Source of the DNA: Candidatus Aerophobota bacterium
GTDB taxonomy: Bacteria > Aerophobota > Aerophobia > Aerophobales > JAGGXI01
Reading direction: 5' to 3'
DNA length: 64,000 nucleotides
NCBI GenBank assembly: GCA_021163155.1
Contig: JAGGXI010000038.1
Location: forward strand, 7,731 to 71,730
Made by a program: the position numbers and the translations under genes
Part shown: positions 4,780 through 31,872 of the stretch, piece by piece
Layout: the number at the start of each line of letters is the position of its first letter
How positions within the stretch are numbered: the stretch's first letter is position 1
The notes under the pieces: model-generated
What the model was told of the DNA's origin: nothing
Seen by the model: only the letters and a program-made list of their open reading frames with translations
Databases searched by the model: none

Positions 4780-4782
4780 AAA

Positions 4783-10924: not shown

Positions 10925-10952
10925 TGTCTTGCGTAAGTATAAAGGATAAACT

Positions 10953-11903: not shown

Positions 11904-11911
11904 GTAAAAAT

Positions 11912-12775: not shown

Positions 12776-12821
12776 AGATTAAGTAATTGTAACTATTCAG
12801 CCTGTTCAATTATAGTATGGG

Positions 12822-12965
12822 GCTAATTGGCTGTTTAGTGGGTAGGGTGAGCTAATCGCCATTTGCAAAACAAGAGTTAGAGGTAATTGGGAGGCTAAAG
12901 CCTCCCCTACCCTGTAGAGAGCTTTAATAGATTGTCGAATCCTGGGCTAAAGTTAGTAGAGAGTA
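12822..12965. repeat. family-A REP-like intergenic element (core GGGAGGCTAAAGCCTCCCCTACCC plus 'ttgcaaaacaagagttagag') inserted between dppC-like and dppD-like
   Basis: Near-identical copies occur at 40945-41050 and, inverted, at 27720-27792. Confidence 0.8.
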
Positions 12966-13024
12966 CCTGAATAGTTACAAGTAATTTTCATAGGAAATTG
13001 TTGATATTGAGAAGAAAGAAAAAA

Positions 13025-14990: not shown

Positions 14991-15187
14991 TTAGGTAGCT
15001 AATTGCGGTGTGTTTAGTTTGAAAAGAGAACCTAATCTATTCTCTTGATAGTAATCAAATATGCTTTAAAAACCAGGCGAAGAAGGTCTGCAAATCTATC
15101 GTCTTACAGAGTTGGGATAGAGAAGAGAAAATGGATGGTAATTTTATGATACTAAATTCCAAAAATTTTAACCAGGAGGTATAAAAA

Positions 15188-15955: not shown

Positions 15956-15999
15956 CTATCTAAGTTTTATTAACTGATTTTTGGGGAGGGGTGATTTAA

Positions 16000-16907: not shown

Positions 16908-17180
16908 TTACTCTGGTATCAAGTAGGGATCTTCTGGAATAGCTATAATTTTGGTATTTTCCCCATATTTAGAAAAAGCTCTCTTAAGCCCTTCTTCCAT
17001 TGAAGCAATAGGAGTAACTAATAAATTTCTTAAAACATTATCATCTATTTCATCTGAATAATACATAATCTCAGCTTTTTTTAAAGTCTTACATATCTCC
17101 TCAACCTGCCATTGGTCAATTACAAAAAATTTAGGATTATTAATTTTATTAAGGAATTCATCAGCACTTTTTGTTTGCAT
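16908..17180 (-). CDS. hypothetical protein (only the distal 91 aa of the 170-aa ORF is likely real)
   Basis: The ORF-track N-terminus (17181-17420) runs through the repeated promoter module and reproduces the peptide 'NNKQFTINFFFVNP'. The same peptide appears at 25792..26022, so that part is an artefact. Confidence 0.3.
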   Translation of the reverse strand: MQTKSADEFLNKINNPKFFVIDQWQVEEICKTLKKAEIMYYSDEIDDNVLRNLLVTPIASMEEGLKRAFSKYGENTKIIAIPEDPYLIPE

Positions 17181-17320
17181 TAATAAATCCTCAAACTCTT
17201 TTTCCTCTATCCTGTTTTTGCATGAAGAGCAGATAATGATTGTTCCTCCTTCTTTAATTGCAGAAGGAAGAATTTCTTCCGAAAAACTTTTTCGCGTCGG
17301 AGGGTTGACAAAAAAAAAAT

Positions 17321-17385
17321 TAATAGTAAACTGTTTATTGTTGACAATTATTATAAAAATGTCTACAACATAAATACTTATTTTA
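17321..17385 (+). promoter_or_regulatory. repeated promoter/operator module 'agggTTGACAaaaaaaaaattaatagtaaactgtttattgTTGACAattattataaaaa' plus GntR-type palindrome ATGTctacaACAT (17359-17371)
   Basis: About 58 bp are identical to 25831-25900. It sits immediately upstream of the GntR-family gene. Confidence 0.55.
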
Positions 17386-17387
17386 AG

Positions 17388-18083
17388 ATGAGGTATTATA
17401 TGCCAATTTTTGAAAAACAAGAACGGTCAACAATGTTTACCAAAACTTTGAAACAGATTAGGAAGGCTATTAAATCCGGGAAGCTAAAGTCGGGAGATCG
17501 GCTTATTGAATCCAGGTTGGCTGAAGAGATGCAAATAAGCCGATTCCCTATACGTGAGGCAATACGCTATTTAGAAAAAGAAGGGCTCGTTGTTACAATC
17601 CCATTTAAGGGAGCTTATGTTGCTAATTTTGGTGAAAGAGATTTAGAGGAAGTTTATACTTTAAGGAGTGCACTCGAAGAACTTGCAGTACGAAAGCTTA
17701 TGGAAAGCCTTGACAGTAAAAAAATTGAGAAATTGGACTCTATCCTCAAAATGATGAAAAAAGCATCACAAGAGGGGAAAATAGATAAGTTGGTTTCGGT
17801 AGACATGAAGTTTCATCGAACGATCTGTGAGTTATCAGATCACCGTAAATTGCTGGATATGTGGCTAACCCTGGAGCATCAATTAAGGACGTTTATTACG
17901 TTGGAAGAACATCTGTATAAGGAACCGGATGCCCTTGTTAAAACTCATTATCCTGTCATTAAGGATATTAAATCTGGAGATATTAAACGTGCAGAGGAAA
18001 GCATTAGGAAGCACCTTTATAATGCATTGAATATAATTAAACATAGTTACATAAAAACATCTGCACATCAAAAAAATAATTAA
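17388..18083 (+). CDS. GntR-family (FadR/FCD subfamily) transcriptional regulator
   Basis: 'ESRLAEEMQISRFPIREAIRYLEKEGLV' forms the HTH, followed by a C-terminal FCD-like helical domain. The true start may be the ATG at 17400 or 17433. Confidence 0.75.
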   Translation: MRYYMPIFEKQERSTMFTKTLKQIRKAIKSGKLKSGDRLIESRLAEEMQISRFPIREAIRYLEKEGLVVTIPFKGAYVANFGERDLEEVYTLRSALEELAVRKLMESLDSKKIEKLDSILKMMKKASQEGKIDKLVSVDMKFHRTICELSDHRKLLDMWLTLEHQLRTFITLEEHLYKEPDALVKTHYPVIKDIKSGDIKRAEESIRKHLYNALNIIKHSYIKTSAHQKNN

Positions 18084-18189: not shown

Positions 18190-19470
18190 ATGATGAGTAA
18201 TTTTCAAATCAGTGATGTCAGAGCAAGAGAAATTATTGATTGTAGGGGTTTTCCTACAGTACAGGTAGATATCTGCGTTGGCGATAAGATGATGGGTAGA
18301 GCAAATGTACCTGCGGGAAGGTCTACAGGGAGTAACGAGGCACATGAGCTTCGAGACGGAGATAAAAATCGTTATAGAGGACTAGGGGTTAAAAAGGCAG
18401 TAAACAATGTTAACGAGGTAATTGGCCCCAGATTGAAGGGATTAGACGTCACAGAGCAGAGGAAGATCGATATGGCGATGATCAGATTAGACGGAACACT
18501 AAATAAGAGCGCATTGGGGGCAAATGCGATTACAGGTGTATCATTAGCTATTGCTCGTGCCGCTGCCAATGTTTGCGGTCTCCCGCTCTATAGATATCTC
18601 AACCCAAACGGATATATTCTTCCAGTGCCTTTTATGAACTTATTAAATGGTGGGAAGCTTACCTCAAACTATCTTGAGATTCAAGAATTCATAATGGTTC
18701 CGGTAGGTGCGAAATCATTTAAAGAAGCACTTCAAATGACCACAGAAATAAATCTTATACTAAGAGATTTAGTGATAGAAAAGTATGGTATTTTAGCAGT
18801 GAATACGGGGGATGAAGGGGGATACGCCACACCGATGCATGGGATAAGAGAGCCTTTTGAATTTATGGCAAAAGCTGTAAAAAAAGCGGGATATGAAGAG
18901 AAGGTTGTATACGCGATGGACTGTGCGAGTACCCACTGGTATGACAAGAAAGAAAAAGTATATAAACTAAATAAAAAAAGTTATGATAGAGAAGAGCTAA
19001 TCAATCTTTATCGAGAATTAATTAACGAGTTTCCTATTATTTCGATGGAAGATCCCTTGGATGAGGATGACTTTGAGGGTTATGCTAAGATCACAAAAGA
19101 TTTAGGAATTCAAATTATAGGTGATGATCTATTTGTCACAAATGTAGAACGTATAAAGGAAGGCGTAAAGAAAAGAGCAGCTAATGCATTACTTCTAAAA
19201 GTGAATCAAGTGGGAACGCTTTCTGAAGCTTTGGATGCTGCAGACTTTGCTTATCGTAATCAATATAAAGTGCAGGTTTCAGAACGTTCTGGAGAAACGG
19301 AGGACTCTTTTATAGCAGATTTGGCAGTGGGATTAAACTGTGGACAAATCAAAACAGGCGCACCAGTACGTGGCGAGAGAACATCGAAATATAACCGTTT
19401 AATACAAATAGAGGAGGAACTAGGGACTTCAGCAATATATGCTGGCACAAAACTTGTAAAGTCTTTCTGA
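18190..19470 (+). CDS. eno: enolase (phosphopyruvate hydratase)
   Basis: 'EIIDCRGFPTVQ', 'STGSNEAHELRDGDK', 'LLKVNQVGTLSEA' and 'SERSGETED' are present. Confidence 0.85.
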   Translation: MMSNFQISDVRAREIIDCRGFPTVQVDICVGDKMMGRANVPAGRSTGSNEAHELRDGDKNRYRGLGVKKAVNNVNEVIGPRLKGLDVTEQRKIDMAMIRLDGTLNKSALGANAITGVSLAIARAAANVCGLPLYRYLNPNGYILPVPFMNLLNGGKLTSNYLEIQEFIMVPVGAKSFKEALQMTTEINLILRDLVIEKYGILAVNTGDEGGYATPMHGIREPFEFMAKAVKKAGYEEKVVYAMDCASTHWYDKKEKVYKLNKKSYDREELINLYRELINEFPIISMEDPLDEDDFEGYAKITKDLGIQIIGDDLFVTNVERIKEGVKKRAANALLLKVNQVGTLSEALDAADFAYRNQYKVQVSERSGETEDSFIADLAVGLNCGQIKTGAPVRGERTSKYNRLIQIEEELGTSAIYAGTKLVKSF

Positions 19471-19514
19471 ATGTGTAGGTTTATTTAAGGGAGAGGAAGA
19501 GCGGAAAAGGTTTA

Positions 19515-19575
19515 TTAGCCTCCCCTACCCAGGCCAAGCACTCTAACAGTTTGCCGAATCTGGGTTAAATATATC
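19515..19575. repeat. family-A REP-like element (inverted orientation) downstream of eno
   Basis: 'agcctcccctacccaggccaagcactctaacagtttgccgaatctgggtt' is the reverse complement of the copy at 27568 and 31746. Confidence 0.75.
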
Positions 19576-19597
19576 ATATGATGGAGGTAAATAGAGT

Positions 19598-20674
19598 ATG
19601 AAGACAAATAATTTTTTAGGACGTGATTGGATTGATGCAGAATTAGATTTTTCAAAAGAAGAATGGGAAACACTTATTGATATTGGTTTGGAGTTAAAGA
19701 AATTGCATGCTCTAAAACAAGATCAAACCCATATATTAAAAGGGAAAACATTGTTCACTATGTTTTTTAATCGGTCTCTCCGCACCAGGAGTACTTTCGC
19801 AACCGGAATTCAGCAGTTAGGTGGTTTTCATGTTAGCTTAGAGCCGGGTAAGACATATACACCCACAACTAAGGGGTATGACATACCCTACAAGACAGAA
19901 AGAATTTCTGATGTAGCTATGATTTTAGATAGAGTTGGCGACGCAATAGCTATAAGGATGTATGGTGAACCAACATATTGGATTTATGGATTTGCAAACC
20001 AGACAATGAAAGAATTTGCTAAATATGCGGAAATCCCAATAATTAACATGGAGGGTGATAAATACCATCCCACTCAAGCTCTGGCAGATATGATTACTAT
20101 AAAAGAAAAATTTGGTACTTTTAAAGGAATCAAGCTAACAATGTCATGGGCTTACTCTGGTTCAATTGCAAAGCCAAGAGCCGTCCCACAATCAACTATT
20201 CTTGCAGCAACAAAGATGGGCATGGATGTAACTCTCGCATATCCAGAAGGCTTTGAGCTCGATACTAAGGTTATCGAACATTGTAGAAAATTTGCAAATG
20301 AAAACAATGGTTCATTCAAAACTACTAATGATTTCAACGAAGGTTTTAAAGATGCACACGTTGTTTATCCTAAATCTTGGGGACCGGTTTCGTGTTTTAG
20401 CTATGTAGATAAAAGTGGAAAAGTTATCAAAAAATATGATCACGAAAAGGCAAGAAAACTAAATGAATCCAACAAAAGCTGGATTACTACTAAAAAACAG
20501 ATGGAAATAATTCATAAAGATGGTATATATATGCATTGCCTCCCGGCTGATAGAGGACAGGAAGTTACAGATGAGGTAATAGATGGTAAAAATTCTGTTA
20601 TAATTGATGAAGCAGAAAATAGACTTCATGCTCATAAAGCAATAATGGCAATGATTATGGGTGGTAGGTTATAA
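19598..20674 (+). CDS. carbamoyltransferase of the OTC/ATC superfamily (YgeW-like, substrate unknown)
   Basis: 'SLRTRSTF' is a variant of the STRTR motif, and the 'HCLPADRGQEV' HCLP motif is present. Length is 358 aa. Confidence 0.7.
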   Translation: MKTNNFLGRDWIDAELDFSKEEWETLIDIGLELKKLHALKQDQTHILKGKTLFTMFFNRSLRTRSTFATGIQQLGGFHVSLEPGKTYTPTTKGYDIPYKTERISDVAMILDRVGDAIAIRMYGEPTYWIYGFANQTMKEFAKYAEIPIINMEGDKYHPTQALADMITIKEKFGTFKGIKLTMSWAYSGSIAKPRAVPQSTILAATKMGMDVTLAYPEGFELDTKVIEHCRKFANENNGSFKTTNDFNEGFKDAHVVYPKSWGPVSCFSYVDKSGKVIKKYDHEKARKLNESNKSWITTKKQMEIIHKDGIYMHCLPADRGQEVTDEVIDGKNSVIIDEAENRLHAHKAIMAMIMGGRL

Positions 20675-20953
20675 ATATCAAAAAAGAATAACAGCTCAAT
20701 GAAAATTAAATTACGAATGTTTTTAAATATATATTTTCCCCTTTTATTTTAGTTTGTGGAATTTTATCTCCTGGGTTTATCCGTCCCCCTCATCTTCTTA
20801 ATGTAATTCGCCAGGAAAGTATTAGGTTGAGGATGCAATTCATAATTCCTTAAATAAAGGTCTTTTGACGAGATAAAAACAGAAGATACGATGGGCAAGT
20901 ATAAAATATGAGAATAAACGAAGACCTTTTTTAAAGAGAGAATTGTTGAAAAA

Positions 20954-21002
20954 TTATTTTTTTTAGAAACTTTCAGAGAAAGATAAATTAAATTATTTAT
21001 TA
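20954..21002 (+). promoter_or_regulatory. conserved upstream motif 'aaagagagaaNtgttgaaaaatta...ttttagaaactttcagaRaaa' (copy 1)
   Basis: The same motif occurs at 26329-26380 upstream of dctP. Confidence 0.4.
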
Positions 21003-21025
21003 TTAGAAAGGAATAAGGGCAAATT

Positions 21026-22381
21026 ATGTACATTAAAAACAGAGAGAAACTTACCTCACATGGTTATAAAAAAGGAAGGGAGGCAGCGATAGATATTATT
21101 GAATATACATTACATGCTATAGATCCTTATATAGCTACAAAAAATCTTGTTAAACTTTGTGGAGAAACCTTAACCGTTGGCCCTCTGAACTTTGACTTAT
21201 CCCAAAGAGGTAACATTTATGTTCTTGGCGCAGGGAAGGCTACCTTTCCCATCGCTAAAGCTCTCGAAGAGATTTTAGGGGGAAAAATTGCGAAAGGTCT
21301 TATAATCGTTAAGAAAGGTCAAGATGGGACTCTAAAAAAGATTAAGATAAGAGAGGCTTCTCATCCACTGCCTGGCAAAGAAGGGTTTAATGCAGCAAAA
21401 GAGATAATGAAAATAGCTAAACAAACACAAAAAAAAGATATTGTTTTTTGTACTATTACAGGAGGAAGTTCAGCCTTAGCTCCTCTTCCTGTCTCAAGCA
21501 TCAGTTTAAAAGAGAAAAAACAAATTAACGAGTTGCTTTTAACCAGCGGCGCTACAATAAGAGAAATCAATACAGTCAGAAAGCATCTTTCAAATATTAA
21601 GGGGGGGAAACTTGCTCTTTCCATATTTCCTGCAGAAATTATTAATTTAACAGTTTCTGATGTTACAGGGGACCCCTTAGATTACATAACTGGTCCAACT
21701 GTTCCAGATACTTCAAATTTTTCAGAAGCAATCTCTGTTCTAAAAAAATATAATTTATGGGATAAACTACCAAAATCGGTTATAAACTATTTACAAAATG
21801 CTACTCCAGAGTTAGAAACTCCTAAAAATTTTGGGAAATTCAGCTCCCTTGTCCACTCTTTTATTTTAATAAAAAGTGGAGTAGTATGTGAATCAGCGGC
21901 TGAAAAGGCAAAAGAACTCGGCTTTACCCCTATGATTCTAACTACTATGCTCGAAGGAGAGAGTAAAGAAGTAGGCATAGTATTGACAGGAATTGCTAAA
22001 GAAATCATACATCATAATAGGCCATTAATTCCTCCCTGTGCACTTATTGCGGGAGGAGAAACTACTGTCAAAATCAATAATGAACATGGTAAGGGAGGGC
22101 CGAATCAAGAATTTGCTTTAAGTGCCGCTTTACAACTCAGTTCCTATACCAACGTCACTGTTGCAGCAATTGATACAGATGGAACAGATGGACCAACTAA
22201 TATAGCCGGGGGACTTGTAGATAATTCCACAATGGAAAGGGCTAAAGAGAAGGGCTTTAATATATTTGAGTGTCTAGTAAAACATGACACTTCTCGTGTC
22301 TTACTCTCATTGGACGATGCAGTTATAACCAAAGCTACAGGAACTAACGCAAATGATTTTAAAATACTATTAGTGAGTTAA
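21026..22381 (+). CDS. glycerate 2-kinase (MOFRL/DUF4147 family)
   Basis: The 451-aa product has the 'GAGKA' and 'TGGSSA' motifs typical of GckA/TtuD-type glycerate kinase. Confidence 0.8.
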   Translation: MYIKNREKLTSHGYKKGREAAIDIIEYTLHAIDPYIATKNLVKLCGETLTVGPLNFDLSQRGNIYVLGAGKATFPIAKALEEILGGKIAKGLIIVKKGQDGTLKKIKIREASHPLPGKEGFNAAKEIMKIAKQTQKKDIVFCTITGGSSALAPLPVSSISLKEKKQINELLLTSGATIREINTVRKHLSNIKGGKLALSIFPAEIINLTVSDVTGDPLDYITGPTVPDTSNFSEAISVLKKYNLWDKLPKSVINYLQNATPELETPKNFGKFSSLVHSFILIKSGVVCESAAEKAKELGFTPMILTTMLEGESKEVGIVLTGIAKEIIHHNRPLIPPCALIAGGETTVKINNEHGKGGPNQEFALSAALQLSSYTNVTVAAIDTDGTDGPTNIAGGLVDNSTMERAKEKGFNIFECLVKHDTSRVLLSLDDAVITKATGTNANDFKILLVS

Positions 22382-22503
22382 CTCCAGTTCTTCGATAATA
22401 AAAGAAATTATACCATCTATTCCTTTATAAATTCCTAAATTATTAAGGTTTAAATCATAAAAGAATAAGAAAAAATAAAGAAAAAACAAGGAGAGTAATT
22501 AGT

Positions 22504-23664
22504 ATGAAGATTACGGGTTATATGAGGTCGGATGGTTCAGTGGGAGTCAGAAATTATATTGCTATTCTTCCGTCAGTTGGCTGTGCAAACGATTTCGTTT
22601 TAAAATTAGGAAATATTTACCCAAATGTTAAACTTTTAACACACCGTCAGGGATGTAGTCAAGTGGGTTTGGATAACGACCAAACAGTTCGTACTCTTAT
22701 TGGTTTGGGGAAAAATCCTAATATTGCAGGTGTACTAGTAGTTGGTTTGGGTTGCGAAACAATCAAGGCAGAATATATTGCAAAGGAAATATCAAAAACG
22801 AAAAAGATGGTCGAGTGTTTGGTTTTAAATAATGAAAATGGGGTTGCGTCTGCACTTTCAAAAGGGGCAAGATTGTTGAACCCAATGTTACAAGATGCTT
22901 CAAAAATGAAAAGAACCACCTGTGATATGGAACAGTTAATTATTGGTGTTAAATGTGGTCTCTCAGATTCAACATCTGGTATCACCTCCAATCCCGCTAC
23001 AGGCATTGTATCTGACATGGTTATTGAATCTGGGGGCACTGTCATTTTTGGAGAAACCCCTGAAATTATTGGAGTTGATCATATATTGGCTAAAAGGTCA
23101 GCAAATCAGGATGTTGTAAATAAATTACATCGTTTAATAAATGATTGCAAAGAGAGAGTAAAGGCATCAGGCGGAAATATACAAGAAGCAAACGTTGCTC
23201 CTGGTAATATAGCTGGTGGAATTACAACTATTGAAGAGAAATCTATTGGAGCTATTACAAAAGGAGGAAGAAAGACTTTGCAAGATGTACTTAAATATGG
23301 AGAGAAGCCAAAAGGAAAAGGCTTATTTTTTATGGATAGCCCTGGTCGAACTCCAGAAGCACTAACCGGCTTAATTGCAGCTGGAGCTCAGATTATCATT
23401 TTTTCAACTGGAGGAGGATCACCAGGAGGATCTCCTATTTCTCCAGTAATAAAAGTTACAGGAAACCGAAATACAGCACAACGATTAAAGGATATAATTG
23501 ATGTAGATGTCAGCTCAATAATTATGGGTAAGGAAACTTTAAAAGAGGCAGGTATAAAAATTTTCAAAAAGCTATGTAACGTAGCTAGTGGAGAAGTGAC
23601 AAAAGCAGAGATTCTTGGATATGGTTTAATAAGTATTTGGAATATATCTCCTTTATCTGGATAA
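22504..23664 (+). CDS. UxaA/GarD-family sugar-acid dehydratase, large (C-terminal) subunit
   Basis: The 386-aa protein resembles the altronate/galactarate dehydratase catalytic domain. The matching SAF subunit is encoded immediately downstream. Confidence 0.65.
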   Translation: MKITGYMRSDGSVGVRNYIAILPSVGCANDFVLKLGNIYPNVKLLTHRQGCSQVGLDNDQTVRTLIGLGKNPNIAGVLVVGLGCETIKAEYIAKEISKTKKMVECLVLNNENGVASALSKGARLLNPMLQDASKMKRTTCDMEQLIIGVKCGLSDSTSGITSNPATGIVSDMVIESGGTVIFGETPEIIGVDHILAKRSANQDVVNKLHRLINDCKERVKASGGNIQEANVAPGNIAGGITTIEEKSIGAITKGGRKTLQDVLKYGEKPKGKGLFFMDSPGRTPEALTGLIAAGAQIIIFSTGGGSPGGSPISPVIKVTGNRNTAQRLKDIIDVDVSSIIMGKETLKEAGIKIFKKLCNVASGEVTKAEILGYGLISIWNISPLSG

Positions 23665-23780
23665 GAAATAGATTAAGAAATATTAGTTTACATTTAAACG
23701 CCTATGATATAATTGGTCGAGAATTCTGTTCGAAAAATGTAAAAAAATGAGTTTTTAGCTATAGTAGCTGTAAAAATAGC

Positions 23781-23812
23781 ATAGTTTGCCGAATCTGGGT
23801 TAAAAATAATGA
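23781..23812. repeat. partial family-A repeat arm ('catagtttgccgaatctgggtt')
   Basis: It matches the arm of the 19515 copy. Confidence 0.5.
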
Positions 23813-23821
23813 TGGAGGATA

Positions 23822-24106
23822 TTGATGGAGGAAAAAAATGCAATTATGATGGAGGAAAAAGATAATGTAGCTACAGTTCTCTCTGCAGTAGAGAAAAACG
23901 ATAAAGTTAAGATTATACTGGGCAAGAATCATTTTACTGTACTGGCCAAGGAATCAATTCCTTTTGGGCATAAAGTTGCTTTAAGAAAAATAGCAAAAGG
24001 GGAAAATATCATTAAATATGGAGAAGTAATAGGTCGTGCAAGAGATGAAATTAAAAAAGGAACTTATATACATGTACACAACACACAAAGCATTGCTGGC
24101 AAATAA
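23822..24106 (+). CDS. SAF-domain small subunit of UxaA/GarD-family dehydratase
   Basis: The 94-aa product resembles the SAF/FlgA-like N-domain. The start is ambiguous because 'atgatggaggaaaaa' is tandemly duplicated. Confidence 0.55.
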   Translation: MMEEKNAIMMEEKDNVATVLSAVEKNDKVKIILGKNHFTVLAKESIPFGHKVALRKIAKGENIIKYGEVIGRARDEIKKGTYIHVHNTQSIAGK

Positions 24107-24376
24107 TCATCAATATTAAGTAATATATTTTACTGATATTCTGCATTAAGAGTGTATGAAAATAAATAAGTATTACAATAAAGGTATGGTTTAATCTTCT
24201 GTGAAATTGTCTATTTCTTTCTCATAATTATTATACACTTTTATTTGGCAATTGCCCTCTCATACAAGGATAACGTAAATGTGCAGTAATAAATTATGGG
24301 AGATCTGAACGCTCACATAAAGGATAGTGTCGAAAGATTAATCTTTTTTTAGGGGCTTTCCTAGTAGGAGAAGAAT

Positions 24377-25651
24377 ATGAATATTATCCTTCCTTATGGA
24401 AAAGATCGAGTCTCCGTCTCCTTTGACAGGGAACGCTTAGCGTTTATCTTAAATTTAAGTGAAGCATCTGGGCTAACTGACCTGAAAGTAGAAGTTGAAA
24501 GAGCACTTCAAAATCCGATTGGTACAAGTGGATTAAAGCATTTAGTAAAAGCAAACGATTCAGTAGTAATTCTTGTAGATGATAACACTCGGTTAACTCC
24601 TGTGAAAAGGATTATTCCCTATGTATTAAGTGAGTTGCTTAAAGTCGGAGTAAGTGAAAAAATGATTACTATATTAGTAGCCGCTGGCACGCACCGGGAT
24701 ATGACAGATTTAGAATTACGTGAGAAACTAGGTGCTAATATCTGCGATCGTTTTAAGATAGAGCAGCATAATTATAGAGATAAAAAACATCTCAGAAAGG
24801 TAGGAGAAACCGATGGCATTCCGATAGCGGTGAATGCTACTGCGGTTGAGGCAGATTTTCTGATGGGGATTGGAAATATTATTCCACACTGTGATTTCGG
24901 TTTTTCTGGTGGTGCAAAGATAGTAGAGCCAGGAATTTGCGGTTATACAGCTACTGCTTTTACTCATACACTATGTCAAATTGGTGATGAGATTCCATTA
25001 GGAAAAGTAGAGAACCCCGCTCGACTTAAAGCAGAAGCGATGGCGAAAAAGGCAGGACTGGCATTTATATTAAATGTAGTGCTCAATTCTAAAAATGAAA
25101 TAGTATCTATAGTGGCAGGAGATCCAGTTAAAGCACACCGTGAAGGAGTTAAAAAATCACGGTCTATTTATGGAGCATCCTTTTCGGAACCTGCAAAAAT
25201 CCTTATCTGCAGTGCCTATCCAGCAGATAAGGATTTCTGGCAAGCAGCTAAAGGCCTTGCAGCAGCCTATTTTGCTTGTAAGAAAGATGGTATAATTATA
25301 CTTACCTCACCATGTCGTGAGGGAGTTGCTGATAAAGTTCACTTACAATGGACGAATTATTGGTTAAAAATGACCTTTGCTGAGATTTGTAAGAAGTTAA
25401 ATAAGGCTGATTACGAAGATGAGGAGTTGGACTTTATAGCTGGTGGGGGAGCTGCGATGATTGCTCGAATTCGTGAACATGCTACTGTAATCCTTGTGTC
25501 AGATGGGATATCGGAAAAGGATACTGCGCGATTAGGATTTTTGAAAAGTCCCTCACTTCAGGAAGCGACTGATTTTGCTCTTCGCAGATTCAGAGATGGT
25601 TCTGTGGGTGTTATTCCAATGGGCGGAGACACATTGCCCCTGCGAATTTAG
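24377..25651 (+). CDS. LarA-like protein (nickel-pincer-dependent 2-hydroxyacid racemase/epimerase family, DUF2088)
   Basis: The 424-aa product has LarA-like size and an N-terminal DUF2088-like region. This call has low-moderate confidence. Confidence 0.55.
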   Translation: MNIILPYGKDRVSVSFDRERLAFILNLSEASGLTDLKVEVERALQNPIGTSGLKHLVKANDSVVILVDDNTRLTPVKRIIPYVLSELLKVGVSEKMITILVAAGTHRDMTDLELREKLGANICDRFKIEQHNYRDKKHLRKVGETDGIPIAVNATAVEADFLMGIGNIIPHCDFGFSGGAKIVEPGICGYTATAFTHTLCQIGDEIPLGKVENPARLKAEAMAKKAGLAFILNVVLNSKNEIVSIVAGDPVKAHREGVKKSRSIYGASFSEPAKILICSAYPADKDFWQAAKGLAAAYFACKKDGIIILTSPCREGVADKVHLQWTNYWLKMTFAEICKKLNKADYEDEELDFIAGGGAAMIARIREHATVILVSDGISEKDTARLGFLKSPSLQEATDFALRRFRDGSVGVIPMGGDTLPLRI

Positions 25652-25830
25652 TATAGGGTTTTTGTTAAAAAGTGTAAAAGTTTTAGGAAGAGAAGAATTA
25701 GGAATAAAGCCGAAAGAGAGATAAAAAACAAGTAAATTATTAGAGACCTCTGGGTATATTATGCTATAGATAGCATAATATTGTAACATAACTATGCCAC
25801 CGAAATAGTGTTAAAAGTGATTTGATACAG

Positions 25831-25906
25831 AGGGTTGACAAAAAAAAAATTAATAGTAAACTGTTTATTGTTGACAATCATTATAAAAAATGTCTGTAAT
25901 AGACAT
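25831..25906 (+). promoter_or_regulatory. second copy of the repeated promoter/operator module plus palindrome ATGTCTgtaatAGACAT (25890-25906)
   Basis: The sequence is identical to 17321-17385 except for 1-2 nt. It points toward the dctPQM TRAP genes. Confidence 0.55.
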
Positions 25907-26328
25907 GGTTCAATCTTCTCTGAAGTGCAATAGTTCTTTATTGTAATTATTCCACACTTTTCTCTCATTTGGTAATAGTAAACCGGGCTGAAAAGAAGTA
26001 GAAGGTCTAATCTGAGTTTCAAACCGATACCAACTGAGAGAAAAATTGAGGTAATATACAGGGTAGTAAAAAGAGAAGTTAAGGAAAAAGTTAAATAAGT
26101 AAGACAGAAAATTTTTTAAAAAAAAGGAACAGGGAAGGAAGTTGAATCCATCTGAGGGAAAGATAGAATTCGTAAAGTACCCTATTACGGGTTTGAAAAG
26201 GTATATAGAAATGGCGACCATAAAAGAAAACCAAAGGGGTTCTGGTAAGGAGAAGGTTAAAAATAAAGCCGAGCAAGGAGGTGAAAATATAAGAAGGTTA
26301 TTAGCCGGGAAACAAAGGAAAGCATCTT

Positions 26329-26380
26329 AAAGAGAGAAGTGTTGAAAAATTAACCTCTCTTTTTAGAAACTTTCAGAAAA
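26329..26380 (+). promoter_or_regulatory. conserved upstream motif (copy 2) immediately upstream of dctP
   Basis: It matches 20954-21002. Confidence 0.4.
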
Positions 26381-26442
26381 AAATGAACCATGTCTTTATG
26401 TTTATTATGCGTAAAAAATAAATAAATACAAGGAGATTTATT

Positions 26443-27525
26443 ATGAGGAAGATTCTAACAATGTTAGGTATTGTTGTTATGATAATCTTTACTTTCGGCC
26501 TGGTTTTTGCCGAAGGCCAAGAGGTTAGCAAGAAAGATCCCATAGTTATTAATATGGGTAACATTGATACTCCCTTTGAGCTTAATTTGAGCAATACAAA
26601 TGGTCAATTCTCCTCTACAGACATAAAATGCAGAGCATTTAAGAAGATTCTAGAAGCAAAAAGCCATGGAAGATTTAAAGTGAAAATTTATCCTAATGGT
26701 CAATTGGGAAATCAACAAGAAATGATGGAAATGAACAGAGAAGGATCTCTACAAATGACTGGATGCTCAGCCTCACCTATTGTTAGATATACCAAAGAGT
26801 TTATGGCATTTCAGATTCCATATATTTTTAAAGACGTAAATGTAGCATTAAAAGCAATGAATGGCCCTTTAGGAGAAGAGTTTAATGAGTTATTTGTGGA
26901 AAAAACTGGTATAAGATTTCTTGCTTGGGGGTTTGAGGGTTATTTCAATGTTGGTACAGTGAATAAGAAAGTTGTTGTTCCTTCTGATATGAAAGGCTTA
27001 AAGATAAGAAGTGGTATGTCTGCAATTAATGTGCAGATATTTAAACTTCTTGATGCAATTGCAACCCCAATACCTTTTACTGAAATTTATACCTCATTGC
27101 AGCAAAGAGTCATTGATGGAGTGTCAACACCAACAGGGTTTCATTATGCATTGAATTTATATGAGCAGGAAAAATATTTAAATATGGCTGATATTCTTTT
27201 TTCCTGGTCTCCAATCTCTATTAATGAAAAGTTTTATCGTTCTTTATCTAAAGAAGATCAATACCTCATTAAAGATGCTGCAGTAGAAGCTATGAAGACC
27301 TTTCAAGGTATGGTATTATGGGGACGTAGTCTGTGGATGGAGGAATTAAAAAAACAAGGTATGGAAGTAATAATCCCTACGCCAGAACAAAAGGCTTTAT
27401 GGATAAAAACTCTTAGAGATCCTATGATAAAATGGGCCAAAAAACAAATAGGTCCAGAATGGGTGGATAAGGTATTTAATGCTAGTAAGGAAGCAGAAGA
27501 AAAATTATACGGTTCTACCCAATAG
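26443..27525 (+). CDS. dctP: TRAP transporter substrate-binding protein (DctP family)
   Basis: The 360-aa product has a signal peptide, and DctQ and DctM follow it. Confidence 0.85.
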   Translation: MRKILTMLGIVVMIIFTFGLVFAEGQEVSKKDPIVINMGNIDTPFELNLSNTNGQFSSTDIKCRAFKKILEAKSHGRFKVKIYPNGQLGNQQEMMEMNREGSLQMTGCSASPIVRYTKEFMAFQIPYIFKDVNVALKAMNGPLGEEFNELFVEKTGIRFLAWGFEGYFNVGTVNKKVVVPSDMKGLKIRSGMSAINVQIFKLLDAIATPIPFTEIYTSLQQRVIDGVSTPTGFHYALNLYEQEKYLNMADILFSWSPISINEKFYRSLSKEDQYLIKDAAVEAMKTFQGMVLWGRSLWMEELKKQGMEVIIPTPEQKALWIKTLRDPMIKWAKKQIGPEWVDKVFNASKEAEEKLYGSTQ

Positions 27526-27567
27526 ATATCGAAGTTAAAGCTGTTAAAATATTCATATTTATCATAG

Positions 27568-27792
27568 ATTTGGCAAACTATTAGAGTGCTTGGCCTGGCT
27601 ATTGGAAAACCAATAAACCTCTTCCACCCTTCCTCTCCCTTAAGGGGGGTATAACCCTCACCTTAGTCCTCCCCCGTAAAGGGAGAGGGGAAGCGGAAGA
27701 AGTTCTGCTGGGTGAGGGTGAGGGTGACCCAGCCTCCCAATAGCCTCTAACTCTTGTTTTGCAAAGGGTGATTGAAGTCGCCCTACCCATTA
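27568..27792. repeat. full-length composite family-A REP-like element with a GC-rich internal hairpin
   Basis: It contains both arms ('tggcaaactattagagtgcttggcctgg' ... 'cagcctcccaatagcctctaactcttgttttgcaaa'). The ORF 27599..27790(-) lies inside it and is spurious. Confidence 0.8.
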
Positions 27793-27867
27793 AAAAGAGT
27801 ATTTTTGATTAGGGAAAAACCCTTTGAAAAATATAAGAATTAGACCTAATGCCATGTTTTGGAATTA

Positions 27868-27908
27868 ACTTTAGCTAATATTATTCAAATTGCCGAATCT
27901 AGGTTTAT
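27868..27908. repeat. partial family-A arm 'ttagctaatattattcaaattgccgaatctaggttt'
   Basis: It is near-identical to 31836-31872. Confidence 0.6.
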
Positions 27909-27946
27909 ATGTGAACAATTTTAGATAAAGGTGATTAGTAAAAACC

Positions 27947-28429
27947 ATGAATAAAATATTTTACTGGATTTGCAAAGTAGTTACTATCTTTTTAGTTCCA
28001 TTAATGACGATTGTTGTCTTTACACAGGTTATCATGCGTTATGTTTTTTCATCTCCCTTTCCTTGGGCTGAGGAGTTATCCAGGTATATTTTAGTATGGA
28101 TTTCATGCTTTGGAGCCGCTGTTGGAGTAAGAGAAGGGGTGCATGTAAGCATACTTACATTAAACAAACGATTGAAAGGGTGGATTAAATCTTTTGTAAC
28201 GTTTGCCATCCATTTTCTAGAAATAGGTTTCTTTACTGTCACTACAATCTCAGGTACCTTTCTTTCCTTAGGTATGTGGAACATAGAATCTTCAGCCATG
28301 AGGATACACATGACATTGCCTTATATTGCAATTCCTATCAGCTTTTTTTTTATGATGATATTTAGTTTTGAGTCATTGATTAGAGATATAAAAAATATCT
28401 TTTTAATAAATAACAAAACTGGAATTTAG
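27947..28429 (+). CDS. dctQ: TRAP transporter small permease (DctQ)
   Basis: A 160-aa protein with 4 TM helices, lying between dctP and dctM. Confidence 0.8.
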   Translation: MNKIFYWICKVVTIFLVPLMTIVVFTQVIMRYVFSSPFPWAEELSRYILVWISCFGAAVGVREGVHVSILTLNKRLKGWIKSFVTFAIHFLEIGFFTVTTISGTFLSLGMWNIESSAMRIHMTLPYIAIPISFFFMMIFSFESLIRDIKNIFLINNKTGI

Positions 28430-28439
28430 GAGAAATACC

Positions 28440-29717
28440 TTGCTGATACTGTTTTTCATAATATTTTTACTTGCCATAGTGATAGGTTTACCCGTAGCAT
28501 GGGCTCTGGGAGTAAGCGGTCTTATAGCTATGCCTCTTATGGACTTGCCTCTCAGTATAGTTCCTAGAAAAATTTTTATGGGTATGAACATATATGTACT
28601 GATGTGTATACCATTCTTCATCTTAACTGGAGAAATAATGGCTAGAGGAGGACTCACAAAGAGATTATTGAATTTTGCAGTTCTTCTAGTTGGTAGAATA
28701 AAAGGGGGCTTATCTTTAGCAAATGTTTTGGCAAGTATGCTATTTGGCGGAATTACGGGTTCGGCGGTTGCTGATGCAAGTGCATTGGGTTCTATAGAAA
28801 TACCTATGATGGTAGAGAATGGGTATGATGCAGATTTTTCTGCAGCGATTACTTCTGCTTCTGCATGTATAGGGCCTATAATTCCTCCGAGTATACCAGT
28901 AGTTATATATTCAATGGCAGTTGGTGGTGGAGTTTCAATAGGTGCTTTATTTGCAGCAGGTATAGTCCCTGGTATTTTGGTGGGAGTGGCTCTGATGTTA
29001 GCTTGCTATATAATTTCAAAAATAAGAGATTATCCAAGAAGAGAGCAAAGAGTAGCAATTAAAGATCTTTTAATTGGCTTTAAAGATGCATTTTTAGCAC
29101 TTATGACTCCCATTATTATTTTAGGTGGTGTAATAGGAGGTGTATTCTCACCTACAGAAGCCGGGGCAATAGCTGTTGTATATTCTTTTATCATTTCATT
29201 TTTTGTTTATCACGAATTAAAACTTTCTGATTTGCCAAGTTTGTTTTTACGAAGTGGTAGAACCTCTGCAATGGTAATGATCATAATTGGTACGTCCAGC
29301 ATCTTTGGGATGGTCATTGCGTATGGGCAAGTAGGATTAAAACTTGGAGAGTTTTTAAAACCAATGGGTTATTATGGTTTCATCCTGTCGGTAAATATTA
29401 TCTTACTTATTGTAGGTGGTTTCATGGATAATAATCCTGCCATAATAATTTTAGCTCCAATTTTTGCACCTATAGCAGCCAGGCTGGGAATAAATCCCAT
29501 TCATTTTGGTATTATTTTTGTCATGAATCTTATTATTGGTTTAATTACTCCTCCACTGGGGGAAGTTCTTTTTGTTGCTGCTCCACTTGCAGGCATATCA
29601 TTCGAAAAGGTTACAAAGGCAGTTTTGCCATTTATGATCATAGAAATTGGAGTTCTCTTGTTAGTAAGTTATATACCTTCTATTTCGCTATGGGCACCTA
29701 AAATACTTGGTTTTTAA
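28440..29717 (+). CDS. dctM: TRAP transporter large permease (DctM)
   Basis: The 425-aa multi-TM protein has a DctM-like N-terminus ('GLPVAWALG'). The start is a TTG. Confidence 0.85.
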   Translation: MLILFFIIFLLAIVIGLPVAWALGVSGLIAMPLMDLPLSIVPRKIFMGMNIYVLMCIPFFILTGEIMARGGLTKRLLNFAVLLVGRIKGGLSLANVLASMLFGGITGSAVADASALGSIEIPMMVENGYDADFSAAITSASACIGPIIPPSIPVVIYSMAVGGGVSIGALFAAGIVPGILVGVALMLACYIISKIRDYPRREQRVAIKDLLIGFKDAFLALMTPIIILGGVIGGVFSPTEAGAIAVVYSFIISFFVYHELKLSDLPSLFLRSGRTSAMVMIIIGTSSIFGMVIAYGQVGLKLGEFLKPMGYYGFILSVNIILLIVGGFMDNNPAIIILAPIFAPIAARLGINPIHFGIIFVMNLIIGLITPPLGEVLFVAAPLAGISFEKVTKAVLPFMIIEIGVLLLVSYIPSISLWAPKILGF

Positions 29718-29795
29718 TTAAAAATGTTATTTAGATTTACGGGGAAAAAATTATAAACAAAAACTTAAATTATATAAAGTAAATGGAGGAAAATT

Positions 29796-30653
29796 ATGGA
29801 AGTAAAAAATACCGTATGTCTTAACTCTACTGGTAAACTTAAACGTGTTCTACTATGTAAGCCAAAATATTACAAGCTTCTTCCCATTAGTGATGTAGCT
29901 AGGGATCTCGCTGATAAAGGAGTTGAGCAGAACAGGAATGAGGCATTAAAGATACACAAGGAGTTAGAAAATGTTTTTATTGATTTGGGCACTGATATTA
30001 GCTGGGTGGAACCAACTGAAGGATTTGGATGGCAAATATCAACTAGAGATACAGGGGTTAATACGCCCAAGGGAATGTTAATAGGGAGATTTCGTTATGC
30101 TGAGCGCAAAGGAGAAGAGATTTGCGTAAGGAAAACATATGAGAAGTTAGGAGAAAAAGTAGTAGGGCAAATTACCAGGGGTTGTGTAGAAGGAGGTGAT
30201 TGTTTTTTAATAAATGAAAACACACTAATTATAGGAAATGGTAATCGCAGTACCTATTCTGGATTTAAGAATGCAAAAGAGATTTTGAATCCCTATGGAA
30301 TACGAGTTTTTGTTGTTGAATTTCTTTCTAAGTGGAATCACTTAGACATGATTTTTTCACCTGTTGCTGAAAAATTAGCATTAGTTTGTGAAGATGCGGT
30401 CCCAGATTATCTAATTGGGCTTCTTGATGCACTTGGATGGGAGATTATAAGGCTTCCAGGTGAATATGCATTTAAGGGTGAGATTAACATGGCTGCTCTT
30501 GGAGATGGAAAAGTACTTTCATTTCGAGGAAACAGGATTAACAAGATGCTTAAAGCAAGAGGATTAGAGGTTTATGATCCAGAGTTTAGCTTTTTTGTGG
30601 CTGCTGGTATTGGACCGCATTGTGCGACTCTTGAGCTAGAAAGGGAGCCTTAA
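29796..30653 (+). CDS. pentein-superfamily guanidino/ureido hydrolase (DDAH/amidinotransferase/arginine-deiminase-like)
   Basis: The C-terminal catalytic Cys motif 'GIGPHCATLELE' is present. Length is 285 aa. Confidence 0.6.
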   Translation: MEVKNTVCLNSTGKLKRVLLCKPKYYKLLPISDVARDLADKGVEQNRNEALKIHKELENVFIDLGTDISWVEPTEGFGWQISTRDTGVNTPKGMLIGRFRYAERKGEEICVRKTYEKLGEKVVGQITRGCVEGGDCFLINENTLIIGNGNRSTYSGFKNAKEILNPYGIRVFVVEFLSKWNHLDMIFSPVAEKLALVCEDAVPDYLIGLLDALGWEIIRLPGEYAFKGEINMAALGDGKVLSFRGNRINKMLKARGLEVYDPEFSFFVAAGIGPHCATLELEREP

Positions 30654-30732
30654 ATTTGGTTTCATAATTGTTCTGATATATTTCTATAACCTCAATATAA
30701 AATTTGAAATTAAAGATTGAGAGGTATTTAGT

Positions 30733-31746
30733 ATGGAAAGAAAGGAAATTTCGAATTTAAATAATTTAATTTGGTTGTTAGATGATGTTTTTGATTCACA
30801 TTTAATAGAAAAGATAAGGGAGATTTTAAATAAACATGGTTACAATTTGATTACTACGAGGGGTAACAATTTTGAGCATGATTACACTAAATATGCTAAG
30901 AGTGTAAAAGGTATTTTACTACAGGTTGGTTTTCCATTAGGTGAAGAGGCCATAAAAGGACTAAAATCTTGTAAGATTATAGCGGTTACCGGTATAGGTA
31001 TTGATGATCTTGATATAAATGCAGCTACAAAATATAGGGTTGTTGTTACTAATGTGCCTGTTTTTTGTGTTGATGAAGTTTCTGATCATGCTTTAGCTCT
31101 AATTTTAGCACTTAATAGGCGATTACCAGATTGTCAAAATATGACTAAAAGTGGTTTATGGGACGCTGTTAATCTTAAATCCATAAGAAGACTCAAAGGC
31201 CAGGTTCTTGGAATAATTGGATTTGGTAAAATTGGAAAATTAGTTGCTAAAAAGGCAAAATGTTTTGGTTTACAAGTTAAAGTATATGATCCATATATAT
31301 CTAAATCAGAAGTTAACAGCTTAAAAATCAAAGATGTAGGGTTTGATGAATTAATAAGCACTGCTGATTACATCTCTTTACATTTACCTCTAAATAAAGA
31401 AACATATCATATGATAAATTCAAAGTTTTTTAACTCTATGAAAAAAACAGCTTATCTAATAAATGTTTCTAGAGGGGAAATAATAGATGAATCTGCATTG
31501 ATAAATGCATTGAAAACAGAAAGAATTGCAGGAGCTAGTCTGGATGTTTTATCTCATGAACCTCCTGAAATAACTAATCCATTACTATCAATGAAAAATG
31601 TTATAGTTACTCCTCATTCAGCGTTTATTTCTGAAGATTCATTGAAGAATCTCATAGAGATTTCCACAAAATCTATTATTGACTTTTTTGAAGGGAAGAA
31701 ACCTGAAAATATTATTAATCCTCAGGTTTTAAAAAATTATAGATGA
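30733..31746 (+). CDS. D-isomer-specific 2-hydroxyacid dehydrogenase (glycerate/hydroxypyruvate reductase-like)
   Basis: The NAD-binding motif 'GIIGFGKIGKLVAKKA' is present, with a catalytic His near the C-terminus. Confidence 0.85.
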   Translation: MERKEISNLNNLIWLLDDVFDSHLIEKIREILNKHGYNLITTRGNNFEHDYTKYAKSVKGILLQVGFPLGEEAIKGLKSCKIIAVTGIGIDDLDINAATKYRVVVTNVPVFCVDEVSDHALALILALNRRLPDCQNMTKSGLWDAVNLKSIRRLKGQVLGIIGFGKIGKLVAKKAKCFGLQVKVYDPYISKSEVNSLKIKDVGFDELISTADYISLHLPLNKETYHMINSKFFNSMKKTAYLINVSRGEIIDESALINALKTERIAGASLDVLSHEPPEITNPLLSMKNVIVTPHSAFISEDSLKNLIEISTKSIIDFFEGKKPENIINPQVLKNYR

Positions 31747-31872
31747 ACCCAGATTCGGCAAACTGTTAGAGCGCTTAGTCTGAGTAGAGGAGGCCAATAA
31801 ATTTCTTCCGCTCCCTTGAGGTGAGGATTGTGTTTTAGCTAATATTATTCAAATTGCTGAATCCAGGTTTAA
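31746..31872. repeat. family-A REP-like element downstream of the dehydrogenase
   Basis: 'cccagattcggcaaactgttagagcgcttagtctg...ggccaataaa...ttagctaatattattcaaattgctgaatccaggttt'. Confidence 0.75.

Follow-up and report, generated by a model that had tools for sequence, protein, structure and literature searches.

The stretch of DNA analyzed here (the window) comprises 64,000 nucleotides of a Candidatus Aerophobota contig, JAGGXI010000038.1, in which twelve plus-strand genes with clear family assignments in the open reading frame (ORF) map, Pfam and NCBIfam span positions 18190–31746. We tentatively favor reading this island as a composite, undescribed catabolic regulon that would remove a guanidino or ureido group and send a three-carbon hydroxy-acid unit to phosphoenolpyruvate (PEP). 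What we observed, and what this reading builds on, is the gene content, the family memberships, the active-site features, the promoter and leader elements shared within the island, and the recurrence of a core elsewhere. That core would consist of a GntR/FCD regulator, a variant enolase, a MOFRL kinase, an uptake system and a pentein-fold hydrolase, with the transcarbamylase and the LarA/UxaA/TRAP (tripartite ATP-independent periplasmic) part as lineage-specific additions. A first-pass annotation, made from the letters and their ORFs, had proposed a GntR-controlled island combining sugar-acid enzymes with ureido- and guanidino-group enzymes; its genes are present and mostly correctly typed, apart from the subtype of the carbamoyltransferase, and its interpretation is supported in part.

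The pentein gene (29796–30653, plus strand) encodes a 285-aa hydrolase similar to dimethylarginine dimethylaminohydrolase (DDAH) and arginine deiminase (ADI). Its Pfam ADI/DDAH matches are weak, and hidden Markov models (HMMs) of characterized enzymes score it far under their cut-offs (55 against 300 for the DDAH of the M. tuberculosis type, 48 against 450 for ArgZ). The predicted model (pLDDT 90) has the pentein fold and is closest to the ArgZ N-domain (TM-scores 0.81/0.84) and DDAH (0.75/0.85); the candidate catalytic residues, the C-terminal Cys276 (in GPHC) and His182 (in the HLD-type motif NHLD), are invariant in the family. Judging from this model, it is probably a guanidino- or ureido-modifying hydrolase of a 285-aa family without characterized members. 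NCBI names it “hypothetical protein,” and across the locus the specificity-level HMMs all stayed under cut-off and no described pathway was matched, in keeping with the earlier suggestion of an undescribed pathway.

Relatives of this pentein (60–71% identity) were examined in eight independent contexts, for which percentages given with a protein are its identity to the window protein. The fullest match to the island is L172 (G+C 60%), with an enolase (60%), a MOFRL kinase (48%), a Bmp-type ATP-binding cassette (ABC) transporter, the pentein (71%), a bona fide creatininase, a GntR/FCD regulator (34%), PreA, a racemase-like protein and an M20 enzyme. In L173 (G+C 65%), a GntR/FCD gene (35%) is divergent from those for enolase (59%) and pentein (66%), a CN-hydrolase lies nearby, and the core adjoins an ADP-forming acyl-CoA synthetase and a 2-oxoacid:ferredoxin oxidoreductase, two enzyme types also found upstream in the window. 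L174 (G+C 54%) combines GntR, an amino-acid ABC transporter and the pentein with an aldehyde oxidoreductase, a hydantoinase, M20, two transcarbamylases and xanthine dehydrogenase; L176 (G+C 58%) has the order carbamate kinase, pentein, creatininase, pentein; and L009 (G+C 61%) carries three tandem penteins with M20 and a creatinase-like M24 protein. Only amino-acid ABC transporters accompany the gene in L007/L008 (G+C 49%) and L175 (G+C 55%), apart from corrinoid methyltransferase genes in L007/L008.

Taken together, the pentein lies less than 10 kb from a carbamoyl-handling enzyme in six of the eight contexts, among them M20 in L172 and L009, M20 plus the two transcarbamylases in L174, the CN-hydrolase in L173 and carbamate kinase in L176; the partner is a decarbamoylase in five. 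An uptake system usually adjoins it, and the variant enolase and GntR/FCD regulator accompany it in three unrelated lineages, joined in two of the three by the MOFRL kinase. Conservation of the cluster, which the first-pass annotation had asked for as a check, thus applies to this core (GntR/FCD, enolase, transporter, pentein and sometimes the kinase) and not to the full twelve-gene island. The recurrence in L172, L173 and L174 backs the proposed logic of amidino or carbamoyl removal combined with glycerate to 2-phosphoglycerate (2-PG) to PEP. In L007 and L008 (10001–20858) the pentein gene stands with an AsnC regulator, a branched-chain-type ABC transporter, DUF1638, the RACo corrinoid activase, a methyltransferase and a B12-binding protein, a setting that would fit methylamine release and demethylation from methylated guanidino compounds.

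The enolase-family protein (18190–19470, plus strand) is of the archaeal type. Its score on the equivalog model TIGR01060 is 549 bits, well above the cut-off of 300, and its best PDB match is the M. jannaschii enolase (503 bits, with bacterial enolases at about 390–430), but its active-site residues are non-canonical. In yeast enolase, His159 and His373 act in substrate binding and catalysis; in the window protein these positions (yeast numbering) are Leu157 and Glu365 (codons at 18658–18660 and 19282–19284), Ser36 has become Ala42, Ala38 has become Arg44, and Cys18 replaces the canonical Ser. At the level of motifs, DSRGNPT is changed to DCRGFPT, SHRSGETED to SERSGETED, GGxHA to GGKLTS and PSGASTG to PAGRSTG. 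Lys345, Glu168, Glu211, Lys396, Arg374 and the D/E/D metal ligands are retained, as are the KVNQ, QEF, GDEGG and QIKTG motifs. The same changes are present in all four cluster-associated copies (the window; L172, 1389–2663; L173, 8594–9865; L130, 15074–16351), and among the 30 best library enolase representatives only P0408 has the variant pattern, most of the others being canonical. At the least, then, these variants mark a dedicated paralogue clade, and possibly one with a changed substrate or a new function. A new activity, if confirmed, would be a rare new function in a family that is, to our knowledge, otherwise single-function; our literature searches found no paper on His-less enolases or on the gene combination of the island.

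The kinase (21026–22381, plus strand) is probably of the class II glycerate 2-kinase family, judging by its DUF4147 and MOFRL domains (Pfam) and its PDB matches (1x3l, 336 bits; 2b8n, 272 bits), but lies far below the equivalog HMM cut-off (248 bits against 550). Homologues are 47–50% identical in L172, L105 and L130 and 39% in L126. One could go further and suppose that the kinase and the variant enolase, instead of being a glycerate kinase and an ordinary enolase, form a “phosphorylate-then-eliminate” pair that converts a 3-N-substituted 2-hydroxypropanoate (isoserine, 3-ureido-lactate or 3-guanidino-lactate) to PEP, with Glu365 in the place of His373 so that nitrogen can depart as the leaving group. 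Joined by the pentein and the knotted transcarbamylase, such a pair would make up a new substrate-level-phosphorylation pathway for guanidino or ureido acids in anaerobes; we regard this as rather unlikely.

The carbamoyltransferase (19598–20674, plus strand) is a 358-aa protein of the ornithine transcarbamylase (OTC) superfamily, here called OTC358, and is of the knotted type by HMM and PDB matches, fold and motifs. The first-pass annotation had assigned it to the YgeW type, which neither the HMMs nor the motifs nor the predicted fold bear out. The YgeW models TIGR03316 and NF005538 give 161 and 172 bits against cut-offs of 500 and 453; the best HMM is that for N-acetylornithine transcarbamylase (AOTCase), NF003384, at 262 bits and under its cut-off of 288; and the best PDB match is again AOTCase (189 bits), with the YgeW entry 3q98 at only 151 bits. 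When the predicted model (pLDDT 86.7) was used in a fold search, the top TM-scores (0.83–0.84) were to AOTCase and the top E-value to the P. furiosus ornithine transcarbamylase (OTCase), and YgeW was not among the top 50. OTC358 is also shorter than YgeW, whose roughly 395 residues include additional helices at the termini and an extended 240s loop.

The carbamoyl-phosphate motifs of the superfamily (SxRT, HPxQ and HxLP) are present in OTC358 as SLRT at 60, HPTQ at 157 and HCLP at 313. The ornithine motif DxxxSMG is absent from OTC358 and from 29 family members, its site being occupied by VYPK(S/A/C)WG. The residues that confer specificity in AOTCase are Glu92, Asn185 and Lys302 (PMC4581275); in the alignment OTC358 has Pro where AOTCase has Asn185 and Glu where it has Lys302, and the position of Glu92 is ambiguous. 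Membership in the YgeW, OTCase or AOTCase groups was rejected in each case for the failure of a defining feature (HMM, motif, residue or fold), and OTC358 therefore falls in a separate knotted-type clade; it is probably an AOTCase-like, catabolic transcarbamylase.

Members of this family (64–90% identity, mean column identity 80%) are spread over Elusimicrobiota, Caldiserica, Chloroflexota, Spirochaetota, Cloacimonadota and others. We surveyed 42 loci carrying either the family or a sister clade of about 50% identity and found carbamate kinase nearby in 15, with a second transcarbamylase paralogue, PreA-like reductases and adenine deaminase among the other neighbors. Relatives of 64–78% identity lie beside YgeY (bona fide at 419 bits against a cut-off of 321), YgfK (1299 bits) and carbamate kinase; the sister clade lies beside genes for an SsnA-like amidohydrolase, hydantoinase, xanthine dehydrogenase subunits and carbamate kinase. 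In the reductive uric-acid (2,8-dioxopurine) pathway, YgeW cleaves the ureido group to yield carbamoyl phosphate (PMC12507026, PMC12990295), and since the neighbors of the OTC358 family are the gene set of that pathway, OTC358 would by context be a YgeW analogue. None of these ring-reducing or ring-opening neighbors is adjacent to OTC358 in the window. The public names of the family, ornithine or N-acetylornithine carbamoyltransferase, are probably wrong across many phyla, as far as sequence can tell, because the defining motifs of both named enzymes are missing, a result that bears on the annotation of anaerobic uric-acid degradation clusters outside Enterobacteria and Clostridia.

Two further observations concern the transcarbamylase. 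A CysK/CBS-like pyridoxal-phosphate enzyme of 490 aa is encoded at 56603–58075 (minus strand), about 36 kb from the transcarbamylase gene, and is 67% identical to a family found less than 10 kb from the transcarbamylase, often with carbamate kinase as well, in 11 of the 42 loci. Contig L130 was considered as a strong link between transcarbamylase, kinase and enolase and then down-weighted; it carries tetrahydromethanopterin-dependent one-carbon genes, and its divergent kinase and enolase could be part of central metabolism.

The regulator gene (17388–18083, plus strand; GntR and FCD effector domains in Pfam; possible true start at the ATG at 17400) lies 107 bp 5′ of the enolase gene, just ahead of where the first-pass annotation had begun the island. 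Upstream of it is a promoter block (17283–17359, plus strand) that holds a promoter-like site, TTGACA-N16-TAAACT, and, at 17337–17348, the palindrome ATTGTTGACAAT; a second copy of the block (25813–25889, plus strand), with ATTGTTGACAAT at 25867–25878, heads a leader of about 550 nt before dctP. The two 77-nt copies are 88% identical, and the 18-nt core of the block has two matches in the 64 kb against 0.08 expected. Two TTGTYRACAA-like sites also lie directly 5′ of the enolase gene in both L172 and L173, despite a G+C content of 60–65%, and the regulators next to the enolase and pentein genes there are 34–35% identical to that of the window. The duplicated block and the matching sites in two other lineages speak for GntR control, as had been proposed.

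A second shared element, a leader motif of about 57 nt (AAAGAGAGAAKTGTTGAAAAATTA...TTTTTAGAAACTTTCAGA), stands immediately before the kinase gene (20931–20987) and again before dctP (26327–26387), with 89–96% identity between the copies ahead of these start codons; a weaker copy precedes larA (24344–24372; all on the plus strand). From spacing and motifs, the likely transcription units are gntR-eno-OTC358, kinase-uxaL-SAF, larA and dctPQM-pentein-dehydrogenase. Part of the leader motif, TGTTGAAAAATTA, is similar to one half of the candidate operator. A riboswitch or other known RNA in the long leaders was rejected, as Rfam gave no match anywhere in the window at the gathering threshold and, for the island, no meaningful one even at E ≤ 1. 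A leader hairpin acting as a conserved terminator or attenuator was likewise rejected, since the copy ahead of the kinase gene lacks the stem.

The remaining genes of the island encode enzymes and a transporter for hydroxy acids. The dehydratase of the UxaA/GarD family is split, as the first-pass annotation had it, with the correction that the large subunit (UxaL; 22504–23664, plus strand; Pfam GD_AH_second and GD_AH_C; PDB 6u7l) precedes the small SAF-domain subunit (23825–24106, plus strand; Pfam SAF; N-terminal part of TIGR03248; a 93-aa call in L004). UxaL keeps four conserved Cys (C27, C51, C84 and C151) that align with those of E. coli UxaA and GarD, and these, with the SAF, GD_AH_second and GD_AH_C domains, place the pair in the UxaA/GarD superfamily. 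The four Cys are common to UxaA and GarD, have been proposed as iron ligands and are reportedly missing in SuyAB (PMC6336799). The heteromeric layout of a small SAF and a large subunit is that described for SuyAB, but the Cys pattern is not; with all four Cys kept in UxaL, a sulfolactate sulfo-lyase is disfavored and a dihydroxy-acid dehydratase is the favored reading.

The LarA-family (nickel-pincer cofactor) 2-hydroxyacid racemase or epimerase (24377–25651, plus strand; Pfam Lar_N and LarA_C) has the malate racemase LarAH6 as its best HMM (330 bits against a cut-off of 500; lactate racemase, 287 against 460) and Mar2 (6d6z) as its best PDB match. H106, H171, K181, H197, R72, Q289 and K292 are invariant in 30 sequences, and we take the His and Lys columns to correspond to the catalytic His, cofactor-tethering Lys and Ni-binding His of the L. 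plantarum enzyme. The TRAP system is represented by all three genes together, namely dctP for the solute-binding protein (26443–27525; Pfam DctP, 210 bits), dctQ for the small membrane subunit (27947–28429; Pfam DctQ, 109 bits) and dctM for the large membrane subunit (28440–29717; Pfam DctM, 386 bits), all on the plus strand. The PDB relatives of DctP were uninformative as to its ligand (about 30% identity, mixed ligands). At the position where dctQ belongs, a 90-aa antisense ORF has been called in contigs L003 and L004 (8244–8516), and the dctQ call is missing in L005 as well. The last gene (30733–31746, plus strand) encodes a D-isomer-specific 2-hydroxyacid dehydrogenase by Pfam (glyoxylate/hydroxypyruvate reductase, phosphoglycerate dehydrogenase or CtBP-like); every NCBIfam match is under cut-off, and its PGAP name is “C-terminal binding protein.”

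We compared 80 species-representative genome loci from the GTDB collection that carry LarA relatives of 38–48% identity, together with the two closest LarA relatives. The 80 loci commonly carry DctPQM, GntR/FCD and a two-subunit aconitase-X dehydratase (PF04412 and PF01989) and sometimes a 2-hydroxyacid dehydrogenase; a split UxaA occurs together with LarA and TRAP in only one, L039. The LarA/UxaA/TRAP part therefore follows a known theme of racemase, dehydratase and transporter in a lineage-specific assembly, and looks like a separately assembled hydroxy-acid module. Across L010–L089 (for example L015, 8304–9922; L011, 3631–9933; L014, 2300–9573), LarA relatives are mostly flanked by the aconitase-X large and swivel subunits, TRAP and GntR, and several of these loci add urocanase, imidazolonepropionase-like and formiminotransferase genes near LarA, which hints at a racemase-plus-dehydratase route for a hydroxy acid feeding histidine catabolism.

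Put together, these families suggest a route, in which we infer every substrate, which way the transcarbamylase reaction runs and in what order the steps follow. The GntR/FCD regulator would repress the composite regulon, and the TRAP system would bring in a carboxylate bearing a guanidino or ureido group. The pentein would convert guanidino to ureido, or hydrolyze the ureido group further; OTC358 would split the ureido group by phosphorolysis into an amine and carbamoyl phosphate, from which a carbamate kinase encoded elsewhere could make ATP. The LarA-type racemase might render the 2-hydroxy-acid skeleton stereochemically uniform, and the iron-dependent UxaA-type dehydratase and the D-2-hydroxyacid dehydrogenase would then turn that skeleton into a glycerate-like three-carbon acid, to be phosphorylated at O2 by the MOFRL kinase and converted to PEP by the enolase-family enzyme. 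An oxidoreductase and a CoA ligase encoded upstream could carry pyruvate on to acetate and ATP.

These upstream genes form a plus-strand cluster (43–16899) with a GntR/FCD regulator, the three subunits of a 2-oxoacid:ferredoxin oxidoreductase, a succinyl-CoA-synthetase-like beta/alpha pair, an allantoinase-type amidohydrolase, an Opp-type ABC system, an M42 peptidase, a creatininase-family gene and Asparaginase_2. The nearby hydantoinase-like and creatininase-like genes to which the first-pass annotation had pointed are real: the former is the amidohydrolase (5978–7363), which passes the allantoinase model TIGR03178 (384 bits against 357.9) and is named AllB by NCBI, and the latter lies at 15188–15955. 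Several enzyme types of the cluster recur beside pentein or transcarbamylase genes in L129, L172 and L173, and the cluster may share its metabolism with the island. Between the two, at 16908–17420 on the minus strand, is a truncated LarA-family gene with the C-terminal domain only (LarA_C, 61 bits), which abuts the duplicated promoter block and whose first 45 or so codons read through it. Gene and block together suggest a seam at the left border of the island, where DNA may have been inserted or rearranged; that the fragment is a copy of the island LarA was rejected, the sequences being unrelated.

Within the island (MCD6471958-69 in NCBI; window G+C about 36%), all family-assigned genes are on the plus strand, as had been noted, and the short minus-strand ORFs between 18190 and 31746 have no family matches. 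The LarA-like protein is 100% identical to one deposited for Aerophobetes, in a metagenome-assembled genome with locus tags J7K55_*. The pentein gene follows dctM, and the dehydrogenase gene the pentein gene, after gaps of only 79–80 bp. Other gaps are unusually long, which is accounted for by hairpin repeats resembling repetitive extragenic palindromes or miniature inverted-repeat transposable elements (core AGTTTGCCGAATCTGGGTT) in both orientations at 19485–19573, 23781–23808, 27555–27704, 27870–27907 and 31746–31871. This repeat, a long GA-rich hairpin, is confined to the intergenic gaps of the island, with four copies of the core against none expected. Beyond 31746 follow housekeeping genes on the opposite strand, and at 54959–55695 (minus strand) HEPN-domain and nucleotidyltransferase-domain genes adjoin each other as a typical toxin-antitoxin-like pair.

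Several findings weigh against the composite regulon that we favor. Carbamate kinase was not found anywhere in the 64-kb window, and the island contains neither an aminotransferase nor an aldolase. None of the 80 LarA-anchored loci contains the transcarbamylase, kinase, enolase or pentein, and the closest LarA relatives (47–50%) are placed in unrelated contexts; the island in its entirety is confined to nearly identical contigs of this one Aerophobetes lineage. The pentein contexts that hold nothing but amino-acid ABC transporters fit an arginine-like substrate and not a hydroxy acid. The enolase scores so well on TIGR01060 that it may yet be an ordinary enolase, and one site of each operator pair overlaps the TTGACA -35 box, so that its conservation is partly confounded with promoter strength.

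Alternatively, two independent pathways may simply lie side by side, which we consider possible without calling it likely. One would be a hydroxy- or sugar-acid module in which TRAP, the LarA epimerase, the UxaA dehydratase and the dehydrogenase lead into a branch resembling the non-phosphorylative Entner-Doudoroff route (glycerate to 2-PG to PEP by MOFRL kinase and enolase), and the other a nitrogen module in which the pentein and the transcarbamylase act on an unrelated, amino-acid-like guanidino compound such as a methylarginine or citrulline-type substrate. MOFRL kinases and archaeal-type enolases do belong to the non-phosphorylative Entner-Doudoroff route. LarA relatives, moreover, typically keep company with TRAP, GntR and a dehydratase and no nitrogen enzyme (L039 even unites the split UxaA with both LarA and TRAP), and the four Cys of UxaL are typical of sugar-acid dehydratases (PMC6336799). 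The pentein family, for its part, is often found by amino-acid ABC transporters, and the corrinoid methyltransferase genes of L007/L008 are what one would expect for methylamine release. A clean division into two modules is nevertheless difficult to reconcile with a pentein gene embedded in the TRAP operon 79 bp after dctM, or with promoters of gntR and TRAP that are duplicates of each other. In L172 and L173 the enolase, kinase and GntR travel with the pentein and not with LarA or UxaA, and the island has no 2-keto-3-deoxy-acid aldolase or kinase.

An anaerobic ureide fermentation locus (allantoin-type, purine-derived) extending over the entire plus-strand region 43–31746 strikes us as unlikely. 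Allantoinase would open the ring, the pentein would be a ureido-hydrolase, the dehydrogenase would oxidize ureidoglycolate, the transcarbamylase would act as an oxamate- or ureido-transcarbamylase, the kinase and enolase would form the glycerate branch, and the 2-oxoacid:ferredoxin oxidoreductase and CoA ligase would conserve energy. The upstream amidohydrolase suits this scheme through its allantoinase match and AllB name, although it scores nearly as high against the hydantoin-5-propionate amidohydrolase and dihydropyrimidinase models. In other genomes the OTC358 family is found in clusters for uric-acid degradation (PMC12507026); a glycerate-to-2-PG branch is joined to a transcarbamylase/carbamate-kinase branch in the allantoin regulon of E. 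coli as well (PMC12535856); and dihydrolases of the ArgZ type, the closest structure to the pentein, hydrolyze ureido intermediates. Set against this, we found neither glyoxylate carboligase nor tartronate-semialdehyde reductase in the window, and likewise no AllC, AllE, AllD-type dehydrogenase or carbamate kinase there, and the seam at 16908–17420 separates the upstream cluster from the island. It is highly improbable, finally, that there is no pathway link at all and that a housekeeping enolase (glycolysis) and transcarbamylase (arginine biosynthesis) have come to lie beside a hydroxy-acid operon by chance. Such a view can appeal to the TIGR01060 match and to a transcarbamylase family that is extremely conserved and annotated as ornithine or N-acetylornithine carbamoyltransferase, but the enolase is without the two canonical His and its variant clade travels with GntR and pentein in other lineages, while OTC358 is without DxxxSMG and two of the three AOTCase specificity residues and its relatives neighbor carbamate kinase, YgeY, YgfK and SsnA-like genes, not arg genes.

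The composite regulon remains the reading we prefer. A pentein family, an AOTCase-like catabolic transcarbamylase and a variant enolase clade are now tied to a recurring genomic and regulatory context, and if the core does degrade a guanidino or ureido acid, it would add an organic-nitrogen route for uncultured sediment anaerobes (the Aerophobetes and the organisms of L172 and L173).

Among known systems, the arginine and agmatine deiminase pathways likewise pair a pentein-fold guanidino hydrolase and an OTC-superfamily transcarbamylase with an uptake system, and the logic of guanidino to ureido to amine plus carbamoyl phosphate, as proposed for the island, would be shared. In contrast to those pathways, the island pentein belongs to a separate family far under the DDAH, ADI and ArgZ cut-offs, its transcarbamylase is knotted and AOTCase-like and without ornithine or putrescine motifs, and its enzymes are coupled to hydroxy-acid enzymes and a kinase/enolase pair; the window has no antiporter and, lacking carbamate kinase, does not bring deiminase, transcarbamylase and carbamate kinase together. 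With YgeW of anaerobic urate degradation, the OTC358 family appears by context to share the ureido-cleaving, carbamoyl-phosphate-forming role, although it differs in HMM, length and fold and has neither uricolytic genes nor carbamate kinase adjacent in the window. The Xanthomonas AOTCase ArgF′ (PDB 3kzk/3m5c) resembles OTC358 in the extended 120s loop, the Pro-containing loop, VVY(A/P)KSWG and HCLP, but OTC358 has a 12-residue insertion in the 240s region, and the context of its family is catabolic and not an arg operon.

The architecture of racemase, dehydratase and transporter is shared with the utilization loci that combine LarA, a dehydratase, TRAP and GntR, except that the dehydratase is of the UxaA/SAF type here and aconitase X there (L039 excepted) and that only the island carries nitrogen enzymes, kinase and enolase. 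The glycerate branches of galactarate/glucarate catabolism (GarD-GarL-GarR-GarK) and allantoin catabolism (Gcl-GlxR-GlxK) and the lower archaeal non-phosphorylative Entner-Doudoroff route likewise use a UxaA/GarD dehydratase, a reductase-type dehydrogenase, a glycerate 2-kinase and an enolase to reach PEP; the island differs from them in having no aldolase or carboligase, a kinase of MOFRL class II and not of the GarK/GlxK class, a dehydratase split into two polypeptides, and a variant enolase active site. On balance, the logic of the locus resembles that of the arginine and agmatine deiminase pathways and of the YgeW step of urate degradation, joined to a glycerate-to-PEP branch.

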